Positions 1-539 of a stretch of 600 nt of DNA are shown here, piece by piece. Below the pieces are notes generated by a model, which was not told where the DNA came from, searched no databases, and worked only from the letters and a program-made list of their open reading frames with translations. This DNA is from Escherichia coli. GTDB taxonomy: Bacteria; Pseudomonadota; Gammaproteobacteria; Enterobacterales; Enterobacteriaceae. The position numbers and the translations under genes were made by a program. Within the stretch, counting starts at the first letter, position 1. Each line of letters starts with the position of its first letter. The DNA is taken from assembly GCF_003334335.1 (NCBI RefSeq), contig NZ_QOWQ01000167.1; one strand, given 5' to 3'.

Positions 1-191
1 AGACACTGGTCCAGCCACTTCAGGTAATCATCGTCGCCCTTCCACTGGTTATCCCAGCCCTCAGGCTTCACTTTAAAGTACGGCGGGTCCGTGACTATCA
101 GGTCAACAGAATTTTCGGGTAACGACCGGATAAATTCCAGGCAGTCGGCGTTGATTAACTCACAACTGGATATTTTTACAGTATTAAGCAT
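1..191 (-). CDS. DNA amino-methyltransferase (probable N6-adenine, beta-class), 5' portion only; the gene runs off the left edge of the window
   Basis: Hand translation of the reverse complement from the ATG at 191..189 gives MLNTVKISSCELINADCLEFIRSLPENSVDLIVTDPPYFKVKPEGWDNQWKGDDDYLKWLDQCL, uninterrupted to position 1. An in-frame TGA sits immediately upstream (197..195), so the ORF cannot start earlier. The motif 'SVDLIVTDPPY' (DPPY encoded at 89..78) is the catalytic motif IV of amino-methyltransferases; its position ~35 residues from the N-terminus is the beta-class arrangement (YhdJ/CcrM/M.PvuII-like). D rather than S before PPY favours N6-adenine over N4-cytosine. This ORF is absent from the supplied track, presumably because it has no stop codon inside the window. 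Confidence 0.85.
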   Translation of the reverse strand, partial: MLNTVKISSCELINADCLEFIRSLPENSVDLIVTDPPYFKVKPEGWDNQWKGDDDYLKWLDQC

Positions 192-202
192 GGATCATTA
201 AG

Positions 203-210
203 CCTGTCTC
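203..210 (-). promoter_or_regulatory. weak candidate Shine-Dalgarno region for the methyltransferase gene
   Basis: Minus-strand 'GAGACAGG'; the AGG (205..203) is 11 nt upstream of the ATG at 191, a long spacer with weak complementarity. No better SD is visible. Confidence 0.3.
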
Positions 211-223
211 TGATAGGCTCATT

Positions 224-242
224 CTGCTTTTGCGCAAAGCAG
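224..242. repeat. short palindrome (7-5-7), candidate operator or leader hairpin upstream of the methyltransferase gene
   Basis: 'CTGCTTT' (224..230) and 'AAAGCAG' (236..242) are exact reverse complements separated by 'TGCGC'. Lies 33..51 nt upstream of the methyltransferase start codon. Confidence 0.45.
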
Positions 243-283
243 TGGGCCTGAGGTTTGCTTGTGATCCGGACGCATGAGCAGAT

Positions 284-314
284 GGCTGGTGAGTGCCCCT
301 AACACCCACCAGCC
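284..314. repeat. GC-rich inverted repeat / stable hairpin, function unknown
   Basis: 'GGCTGGTGaGTG' (284..295) pairs with 'CACcCACCAGCC' (303..314): 12 positions with one mismatch (292/306), 7-nt loop 'CCCCTAA'. Not followed by a T-tract on either strand, so not a canonical terminator. Confidence 0.55.
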
Positions 315-327
315 GCCCATTTACCAC

Positions 328-355
328 AAATAAAAAAGCCTTCACTGCGGAAGGC
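328..355 (-). terminator. putative Rho-independent terminator of the 65-aa ORF
   Basis: Minus-strand transcript would read GCCUUC-CGCAGU-GAAGGC (6-bp stem 338..343 / 350..355, 6-nt loop) followed directly by UUUUUUAUUU (337..328). The stem is short (4 GC pairs of 6), hence moderate confidence. The ORF's stop codon is embedded in the stem. Confidence 0.5.
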
Positions 356-539
356 GTCTGTAACAACCGAACTGATAGTCTGCCAGACCCGCCATAACCA
401 GCTGGGTCAGTATTAACTGGCAGCGTTCGCGTGAAAGGTAAGTATTCTGCGCAATCTCCCCGACTGTCGCCGGTTCGGTGGCACTTAATTCATTAAACAC
501 CACTCTGGCGGTTTCTGTCATATCCTGCTGTTTTAGCAT
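342..539 (-). CDS. small (65 aa) hypothetical protein, putative winged-helix/HTH DNA-binding regulator
   Basis: Part of the supplied 77-aa minus-strand ORF (342..575). I place the start at the ATG at 539..537 (MLKQQDMTETARVVFNELSATEPATVGEIAQNTYLSRERCQLILTQLVMAGLADYQFGCYRRLPQ) because it has an SD-like 'AAGGG' (552..548) 8 nt upstream, whereas the track's start at 575 is a TTG with no usable SD spacing. The stretch 'TVGEIAQNTYLSRERCQLILTQLVMAGL' has the helix / turn / recognition-helix pattern seen in winged-helix regulators. The stop TGA (344..342) lies inside a terminator-like hairpin. Coding status is moderately supported; the functional call is by eye only. Confidence 0.6.
   Translation of the reverse strand: MLKQQDMTETARVVFNELSATEPATVGEIAQNTYLSRERCQLILTQLVMAGLADYQFGCYRRLPQ

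Follow-up and report, generated by a model that had tools for sequence, protein, structure and literature searches.

A palindrome ahead of a prophage adenine methyltransferase gene is most likely the tip of a hairpin in a conserved mRNA leader

The palindrome CTGCTTT-TGCGC-AAAGCAG occupies positions 224-242 of a 600-nucleotide (nt) stretch of Escherichia coli DNA (hereafter the window), between a gene for a 65-amino-acid (aa) winged-helix protein and a DNA methyltransferase (methylase) gene. Comparison of homologous loci indicates that it most likely forms the tip of a hairpin (P3) within a conserved folded mRNA leader and is probably not a DNA operator. A first-pass annotation had proposed that this perfect 7-5-7 dyad in the methyltransferase leader is the binding site of a dimeric helix-turn-helix (HTH) protein, the 65-aa protein being the candidate. 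An inverted-repeat search recovered the palindrome exactly as described, with 7-nt arms that are 100% complementary around a 5-nt spacer, and its position between the 65-aa gene and the methylase ATG was likewise borne out. On balance, we judge it rather probable that the dyad is best explained, as a whole, as the tip of P3 in a leader RNA that inhibits translation of the methylase.

The palindrome within a conserved leader RNA

By its size alone, the dyad is not significant against chance. It is the sole perfect inverted repeat in the window with arms of at least 7 nt and a loop of 0-12 nt, and at least one equal repeat arises in 32% of whole-window shuffles and in 13% of shuffles of the 150-nt spacer (2000 dinucleotide-preserving shuffles). 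No further CTGCTTT or AAAGCAG half-site is present elsewhere in the window, and the 12.6-kb homologous locus L002 contains neither a second dyad (up to 3 mismatches) nor GCTTT-N3-8-AAAGC; a second operator or a cluster of half-sites was rejected accordingly. This search of L002 covered the region upstream of the 65-aa gene, where the first-pass annotation had suggested looking for related half-sites. Judged from the sequence comparison, the reality of the dyad as a feature rests on conservation and covariation at homologous loci and not on window statistics.

The dyad lies in a leader of ~140 nt that precedes the methylase in 54 divergent loci, whose range extends from Escherichia to phages of Vibrio, Aeromonas and Gilliamella. 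Already in the first alignment, of eight loci, the spacer was better conserved than the flanking coding DNA. Leaders were collected by scanning viral contigs for an exact motif and one genome per species on the basis of the methylase, and a covariance model was built from a MAFFT alignment (A2, described below). The model recovered 43 full-length copies scoring 96-162 bits, one per locus, and all 43 end at ATG+6. Leaders are found in Escherichia, Mixta, Trabulsiella, Kosakonia, Enterobacter, Klebsiella, Citrobacter, Kluyvera, Buttiauxella, Mangrovibacter, Rosenbergiella, Hafnia, Providencia, Proteus and Morganella. Across genera, leaders share 65-83% identity with that of E. coli; for the adjacent gene, 4-fold degenerate third positions are 26-50% and coding DNA overall 61-78% identical. 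With the model filters off, distant matches of 20-65 bits were obtained in N15, phiKO2, PhiR46_1, Klebsiella 48ST307 and Yersinia P840, as well as in Vibrio VHML, VP58.5, Valp1 and ST2-1pr, an Aeromonas phage and Gilliamella prophages; a second Gilliamella copy, at 17 bits (E = 0.18), was accepted on its fold. The match again ends at ATG+6 in N15, phiKO2, PhiR46_1, 48ST307 and P840, as in the Enterobacterales, and in Gilliamella, too, the leader reaches exactly to the methylase start codon. In VHML and VP58.5, the end of the match lies 6 nt short of the annotated start and immediately precedes a Shine-Dalgarno (SD) sequence; these two are among five loci, from Vibrio and Aeromonas, in which up to ~130 nt intervene between leader and methylase.

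The helices were assessed in A2, which comprises 31 representatives less than 96% identical, with six paired segments (P1a-P3b) grouped into five helices. In this MAFFT-only alignment, 89.5% of the cells are paired versus 29-43% with slid 3' partners, and 10 pairs display double-sided changes versus 2-7 in the slid controls. The corresponding values in a model-based alignment are 90.1% versus 30-43% and 14 versus 3-7, and in either alignment none of 500 shuffles reaches any observed measure. In P2 (helix 3), double changes convert A-U to G-C and G-C to A-U. P3a, GGCCCAC/(G or A)UGAGCC, covaries as well: its first pair (86/121) occurs as G-C, G.U and A-U, its internal C.A mismatch becomes U-A in Mixta, and its last pair (92/115) is found as both C-G and U-A. 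In the model-based alignment, G.U is the commonest pair at 10/55 and, within P2, at 69/144, and is frequent elsewhere too. On the opposite strand these would be C.A mismatches, so that such pairs fit sense-strand RNA only. The sense strand of the window has a minimum free energy (MFE) of -62.3 kcal/mol (z = -5.0; 0/200 shuffles as stable), versus z = -3.3 for the antisense strand, and its MFE fold reproduces the covariation model, dyad stem included. Furthermore, independent folds of the 43 sequences give mean pair probabilities of 0.64-0.76 per helix. Collectively, these data make it very probable that the dyad belongs to a conserved sense-strand RNA structure.

Within this structure, only part of the palindrome is kept at the sequence level. 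In Enterobacterales, the five inner dyad pairs are nearly invariant. The next pair outwards is U-A in 20 sequences, U.G in 4 and C-G in 3, and does not form in 16. Conservation is lacking at the outermost pair, C242-G224, which falls in a 2-nt bulge that is variable in most lineages, and the two outer half-site positions vary freely. GCTT and AAGC are 7 nt apart in 5 leaders (those of the E. coli type, the window among them), 8 nt in 31 (most lineages) and 9 nt in 6 (Proteus, Providencia, Morganella, Hafnia). In distant phages, the hairpin is 10 to 17 nt long and its apical stem is compensated: GCUU/AAGC in Valp1, Aeromonas and VHML, GCUC/GAGC in ST2-1pr, GCGAU/AUCGC in N15 and PhiR46_1, GCUG/CAGC in phiKO2, 48ST307 and P840, and GCU/AGC versus GCC/GGC in the two Gilliamella copies. 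Pairing of the stem is never disrupted in these distant members. Thus, the sequence of the arms drifts and their pairing is kept, which points to a hairpin and not to a sequence-specific protein site. The core GCTT/AAGC is retained wherever the small gene is present, and is retained too in Vibrio and Aeromonas phages that have no small gene. Moreover, all lineages have a self-complementary tetranucleotide at the hairpin's centre, which differs in sequence between them (GCGC, UGCA, UCGA or GAUC), and several lineages have perfect even-length palindromes of 10 to 16 bp, again of differing sequences. A statistically unremarkable palindrome thus appears to be the visible tip of a far larger conserved RNA structure.

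No earlier description of this structured RNA was found. A known RNA family was rejected for want of an Rfam match: the best hit for the window, P26, scored 16.6 bits (E = 0.77) where the gathering score is 36, and six divergent loci gave tRNA matches only. In the literature, we found no small RNA or regulatory element reported between Q and the methylase in Stx phages. Nor is there an open reading frame (ORF) conserved in the leader in any frame. A 33-aa ORF, MGGWWVLGALTSHLLMRPDHKQTSGPLLCAKAE (window 219-320, minus strand), spans P1 to P3, and its frame is kept in SfV via compensating indels. As a hidden gene (320..219, MGGWWV...) it was rejected, because the ORF starting at the ATG in AAATGGGCGG has just 7 codons in 16 of the 43 leaders, and from 3 to more than 43 codons in the remaining ones.

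Other pairings and signals in the leader were considered. The 5' arm of P1 contains a Chi octamer, GCTGGTGG (window 306-313, minus strand), which is oriented with late transcription, persists in the majority of Enterobacteriaceae-type leaders and sits at the mosaic junction where the small-gene module and the methylase module meet. Chi in this orientation would act on RecBCD entering from the downstream (cos) side. As the cause of the invariant GGCTGGTGGGTG, Chi was rejected, being lost in Providencia, Proteus, Hafnia, Rosenbergiella and N15; where it is lost, P1 pairing is kept by compensatory changes. An attenuator-type alternative hairpin involving an upstream copy of GCUUACUG, seen in SfV, was set aside since this copy, part of the most variable linker, lacks conservation. 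The sequence AGCCTGTCTCTGATAGGCT (window 201-219) can form a hairpin that would compete on the sense strand with P3a and P2b; this GCCU...AGGC pairing is available in some lineages only and is probably not a conserved alternative fold. Finally, a pseudoknot between the P1 loop and J2-3 (UUGG/CCAA) displayed no co-variation by eye.

Table 1. Features of the window, with the predicted helices of the leader RNA
Feature	Position	Strand	Remarks
65-aa winged-helix protein gene	342..539	-	phrog_331; 'TrmB family' in some RefSeq records
DNA methyltransferase gene, 5' part	1..191	-	ATG 191-189; N-terminal DPPY motif; assigned from sequence to the M.EcoGI/GII family; no SD
Intrinsic terminator	331..355	-	GCCUUCCGCAGUGAAGGC then UUUUUUA; overlaps stop codon of the 65-aa gene
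Conserved leader RNA, full covariance-model match	186..326	-	130.4 bits; ends at ATG+6
Hairpin P1	274..320	-	P1a AUGGG (320-316) / CUCAU (278-274); loop 302-296
P1b	314-303 / 295-284	-	GGCUGGUGGGUG / CACUCACCAGCC; helix 2, 8 pairs with double-sided changes
Long-range helix P2, enclosing P3	192..267	-	P2a GGAUCA (267-262) / UGAUCC (197-192), directly 5' of AUG
P2b	260-257 / 203-200	-	AAGC / GCUU; conserved internal loops 256-249 and 215-204
Hairpin P3	216..248	-	basal P3a GGCCCAC (248-242) / AUGAGCC (222-216), one C.A mismatch, A bulge; P3b stacked on top
Dyad, apex of P3	224..242	-	sense strand CUGCUUU-GCGCA-AAAGCAG; P3b 241-236 / 230-225, loop 235-231

The late operon and the start of the methylase gene

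The window derives from the late region of a lambdoid (phiP27/Stx/SfV-type) prophage, in which both genes lie on the minus strand. Similar sequence is present in 2283 of 5426 complete E. coli genomes (~40%), and also in Stx-converting phages, phiP27 and SfV. The annotated gene order is antiterminator Q, 65-aa gene, DNA methyltransferase, tRNAs and then stx or lysis genes; in Stx phages the leader RNA sits on a transcript that runs on into tRNA and stx genes. In the locus type of the window, the order is pR'/tR', 65-aa gene, intrinsic terminator, 150-nt spacer and methylase; N15 and phiKO2 are annotated with a late promoter, terminator, leader, methylase, terminator and holin. A strong terminator (tR') follows the Q gene on the coding strand (L002 6683-6668), with a lambda-pR'-like TTGATT-N16-TAAATT, read by eye, upstream of it. 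Together with the terminator in the window (331-355), tR' separates the late promoter from the methylase. Sigma-70-like promoter sites were found neither in the window and its spacer nor in L002 6100-6850, and a separate methylase promoter was rejected: a by-eye match, TTGCGC...TATCAG, is not conserved (TACCAG in SfV). From this arrangement, the methylase appears to be a Q-dependent late-operon gene behind two terminators, in which case an operator at the dyad would have no promoter to act on. The dyad was also considered as an intrinsic terminator and rejected, since the sense strand continues after it with AAUGAGCC, which provides no U-run; within the window, a terminator scanner reports nothing beyond a minus-strand terminator at 355-338 and a weak plus-strand one at 201-219.

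The locus is mosaic. BLAST matches fall into three classes: the whole region; the methylase with window 150-322 beside a very divergent small gene (cdtI, mEp460 and Stx2c phages); and the small gene with window ~270/302-400 and no methylase (Stx2k phage, PhiR5_1). Breakpoints lie within or beside P1 (window ~270-322; loci L008, L009, L050, L062 and L086). Some phages have the small gene, the terminator and P1, or the 5' half of P1 only, followed by unrelated genes, and in others P1 and the methylase stand behind a divergent small gene.

Enzymes of the M.EcoGII type methylate virtually all adenines and are now in wide use as tools. To our knowledge, the silencing and switch-on of such genes in prophages have not been described, and a leader RNA on an SD-less gene for a toxic methylase makes this question directly testable. 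The methylase homologue in L002 has 349 aa with DPPY at residues 35-38, and the methylase has beta-class relatives in PDB. Because of this length, the motif, the beta-class relatives and the 97.7% identity of the window to phage 1720a-02, we consider it, from these features, an M.EcoGI/GII-type non-specific adenine methyltransferase. Phage 1720a-02 has been cited in the M.EcoGII paper as bearing a very similar enzyme, and M.EcoGI and M.EcoGII (349 aa) were reported there to be unexpressed in the lysogen and deleterious under constitutive expression (PMC5778455).

At the start of the methylase gene, no SD was detected in any of the 43 Enterobacterales leaders by an anti-SD duplex search of positions -22..-3. 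The best duplexes in this region average -2.45 kcal/mol, versus -8.7 and -12.9 for reference SDs, and several leader-less homologues carry an SD-like GAGAGGAAA or AAAGGA. The 12 nt before the AUG (-1 to -12) constitute the 3' strand of P2, whose partner segment lies ~65 nt upstream. An AUG falls within the 3' strand of P2 in the single-sequence MFE folds of Valp1 and ST2-1pr (GUCAUAAG/CUUAUGAC) and of Gilliamella (GGUCAU/AUGACC); these folds, like that of VHML, stand outside the covariation analysis. Across the 43 leaders, the methylase coding sequence starts A-rich (AUGAAAAAUACUGUAAAAAUA in most lineages), and a conserved purine block (CAGAG or AAAAAGG) is found ~15-21 nt upstream of the start, at the far end of P2 (window 186-215).

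The absence of an SD and the pairing of the 12 nt before the AUG suggest that P2 is a translation-inhibition structure. We propose that the leader would be transcribed from the minus strand within the Q-dependent late mRNA and would fold into the long hairpin P1 and a second domain, in which P2 encloses P3. By holding the initiation region of the SD-less methylase, P2 may keep synthesis of a cell-damaging promiscuous enzyme low or conditional, in addition to the block imposed by the two terminators. P3, with the palindrome at its tip, could serve either as a clamp for the fold or as a handle for a trans-acting factor opening it. Sequestration of the start codon by P2 is a prediction that the covariation supports, and we regard the chances that the leader controls translation as evenly balanced. 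The identity of any activator is speculative.

The 65-aa protein and alternative explanations

The 65-aa protein belongs to phrog_331, a family of unknown function, and gives only weak winged HTH profile matches (TrmB, MarR_2, HTH_24; Pfam/NCBIfam). An AlphaFold2 model from 22 homologues has a predicted local distance difference test (pLDDT) score of 91.4 and displays an H-H-H-E-E winged helix, with three helices (4-17, 26-33, 37-49) and a beta-hairpin wing (strands 53-56 and 59-62). Foldseek matched it to the winged-helix domains of IclR, MarR and SelB with TMq up to 0.82 (0.69-0.73 for SelB). A homologue of its gene lies directly upstream of the methylase at 56 of 78 species-level loci, and the small ORF of cdtI and mEp460 is a divergent member of the same family. 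Thus, the part of the first-pass proposal that made this protein the ligand stands as regards a confident nucleic-acid-binding fold and a frequent partnership with the methylase, but co-occurrence with the dyad fails both ways. Indeed, 8 of the 43 leader-bearing loci have unrelated upstream genes in place of the small gene, no small-gene homologue was found at the Vibrio and Aeromonas loci, and in ~30 loci of Photorhabdus and Xenorhabdus the small gene and P1 are present but the dyad is not, P2 and P3 being missing. At loci without the methylase (L008, L050, L086), the small gene is still accompanied by P1 alone. Because Photorhabdus and Xenorhabdus retain P1 and lack P2/P3, any target of the protein in the locus would seem, from gene distribution, to be P1 rather than the palindrome, and should the protein be a ligand in the first place, it would more likely bind an RNA hairpin than a duplex. 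That it binds the leader RNA structure is in itself doubtful. So is the fuller scheme in which the protein, made from the same late transcript, would bind P3 or P1, open P2 and license methylase translation, with the self-complementary loop as part of the recognition or dimerisation signal, as an analogue and not a homologue of the com-mom system of phage Mu.

The small gene has further variants. Photorhabdus and Xenorhabdus prophages keep the small gene/methylase pair with a much shorter leader (L155, L160, L186, L203; Xenorhabdus loci ~1395-1506), and some Xenorhabdus copies have a normal SD in place of P2/P3. N15 gp51 (75 aa; L208 706-933) and phiKO2 gp51 (L209 703-930) are weak profile matches to the 65-aa family (E about 3-5e-4), the N15-type gene being located immediately ahead of the late promoter in front of leader and methylase.

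Several observations weigh against a leader RNA that inhibits methylase translation with the dyad at its tip. The inner dyad pairs, being nearly invariant in Enterobacterales, yield no covariation information, and the covariation of P3b was read by eye and script from ~10 distant sequences and not by a formal test such as R-scape. The covariance-model-derived alignment is biased towards the model structure, although the MAFFT-only alignment leads to the same picture. Leader-bearing and leader-less homologues differ only weakly in their SDs (p = 0.03), in a comparison that lacks phylogenetic independence, and VHML has an SD, AGGAAG, after its leader, abutted by the 3' strand of P2. In Valp1, ST2-1pr and Aeromonas PCAh2 (L215-L217), the leader ends ~130 nt upstream of the methylase, and the AUG paired by P2 in these phages is not the methylase start; in Valp1 only, a 41-aa ORF beginning at the leader end is annotated in the gap (L216 912-1051, 1040-1165). 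A self-complementary centre, moreover, is not required by a simple hairpin model and may leave room for loop-loop RNA dimerisation, a role of the dyad at the DNA level or mutational bias. Finally, the folding, the translational repression and any ligand are computed or inferred only.

The operator proposed by the first-pass annotation would be double-stranded DNA bound by a dimer of the 65-aa protein and controlling transcription into the methylase. It accords with the confident winged-helix fold and its IclR and MarR DNA-binding neighbours, with the frequent position of the small gene ahead of the methylase, and with palindromes that many lineages keep perfect through a centre in which a plain RNA hairpin would not need symmetry. 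However, the spacer has no promoter-like site and lies behind two terminators on the coding strand, the spacing of the arms is not fixed, and their outer positions are not conserved. The arms change in distant phages, whereas the putative recognition helix, CQLILTQL, is nearly invariant in Enterobacterales and Morganellaceae homologues. Furthermore, the helices that enclose the dyad have G.U among their commonest pairs, valid on sense-strand RNA only, the dyad fails to co-occur with the small gene in both directions, and no second site exists anywhere in the locus. Of the original claim, the perfect dyad and a plausible regulatory role are retained; a dimeric-HTH operator, given a promoterless spacer, variable spacing and arms that drift with compensation, is very unlikely. 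Chance, which the shuffled windows would allow, can be all but dismissed as the explanation of a functionless palindrome, because 54 divergent leaders, ranging from Escherichia to Vibrio and Gilliamella, retain the dyad in the same position with compensatory changes.

The remaining alternatives largely concern what a leader RNA might do. It could be an element of RNA processing, stability or transcription elongation, for example one cut by RNase III within P3 or the 17-bp P1, or a put-like RNA acting on RNA polymerase so that it passes the terminator behind the methylase. P1 is a long irregular hairpin of the size used by RNase III and persists alone beside the small gene at loci without the methylase, and the leader directly follows the terminators, with another annotated terminator after the methylase in SfV, N15 and phiKO2. 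Yet the element is fixed to the start codon in all 43 Enterobacterales copies, with P2 over the initiation region, Q antitermination already accounts for readthrough, and there is no Rfam match to put or another family, so that we consider this unlikely. Selection may instead act on dyad symmetry through the centre, via RNA kissing dimerisation, a hairpin-duplex equilibrium or a DNA-level role (cruciform, symmetric host factor site). For each independent change, a self-complementary centre would be expected by chance about once in 16 cases, and it is found in all lineages, but truly independent changes are few (about three), the commonest Enterobacterales forms are imperfect at the centre (AGCGCA has A.A, and the window has a 5-nt loop), mutational 'quasipalindrome correction' could yield the pattern without selection, and the surrounding helices are clearly at the RNA level; we hold this to be decidedly unlikely. 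A riboswitch sensing a ligand such as S-adenosylmethionine (SAM) or S-adenosylhomocysteine, and controlling a SAM-dependent methylase, would fit the very highly conserved internal-loop nucleotides (CACAAGCxAACC, GAGCCUAUCAGAG), the covarying fold and the abutment on the start codon. Against it, Rfam gives no match to a known class and a ligand pocket cannot be inferred from sequence, which leaves it highly improbable; we know of no riboswitches ahead of DNA methylase genes.

Comparison with known systems

The arrangement resembles controller (C) proteins of restriction-modification systems with their C-boxes and the operators of lambdoid repressors in having a gene for a small HTH-type protein by a methyltransferase, with a palindrome nearby. 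C-boxes, however, lie upstream of the C gene, overlap a promoter and have fixed geometry, whereas the dyad is downstream of the small gene, promoterless, variable in spacing and inside an RNA fold. At the level of the protein, SelB provides a precedent, as its winged helix binds the selenocysteine insertion sequence (SECIS) hairpin in mRNA and its winged-helix domain is among the structural neighbours of the 65-aa protein; this likeness is one of fold only, with no sequence relationship, and the DNA-binding domains of IclR and MarR match as well or better. Retroviral dimerisation initiation site hairpins present a loop with a self-complementary GCGC- or GUGCAC-type sequence. The self-complementary loop of P3 is similar, but the context is entirely different and RNA dimerisation is hypothetical here.

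The closest known systems are com-mom of Mu and those in FluMu, Pnm1 and B3, which are Mu-like prophages. Mu offers a precedent that fits exactly in its logic: there, Com binds a hairpin beside a translation-inhibition structure holding the mom start codon, and Mu-like prophages have non-specific adenine methyltransferases behind com (PMC6483171, PMC3299994). The present locus shares with them a small gene that immediately precedes, within one late operon, the gene of a promiscuous DNA-modification enzyme harmful to the host, a predicted short hairpin beside a structure sequestering the translation start in the mRNA between the genes, and an enzyme that is silent in the lysogen (PMC6483171, PMC3299994, PMC5778455). 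In contrast to Com, the 65-aa protein is a winged helix that lacks the CxxC zinc finger (it has one invariant Cys only) and is unrelated to Com, and any binding or activation of the leader by it is hypothetical. The leader is also far larger than that of Mu (~140 nt, three helices) and different in sequence, its hosts are lambdoid and N15-like and not transposable phages, and the small gene is absent from some leader-bearing loci. If the 65-aa protein did act on the leader, this would represent a new RNA-binding use of a minimal winged-helix protein together with a new class of cis-regulatory phage RNA. Because the defining zinc-finger protein is absent, the leader would be, by analogy, a case of com-mom-type control and not a member of the com-mom family. 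The leader also suggests that the logic of com-mom, the translational gating of a dangerous DNA-modification enzyme, may have arisen independently in lambdoid phages.

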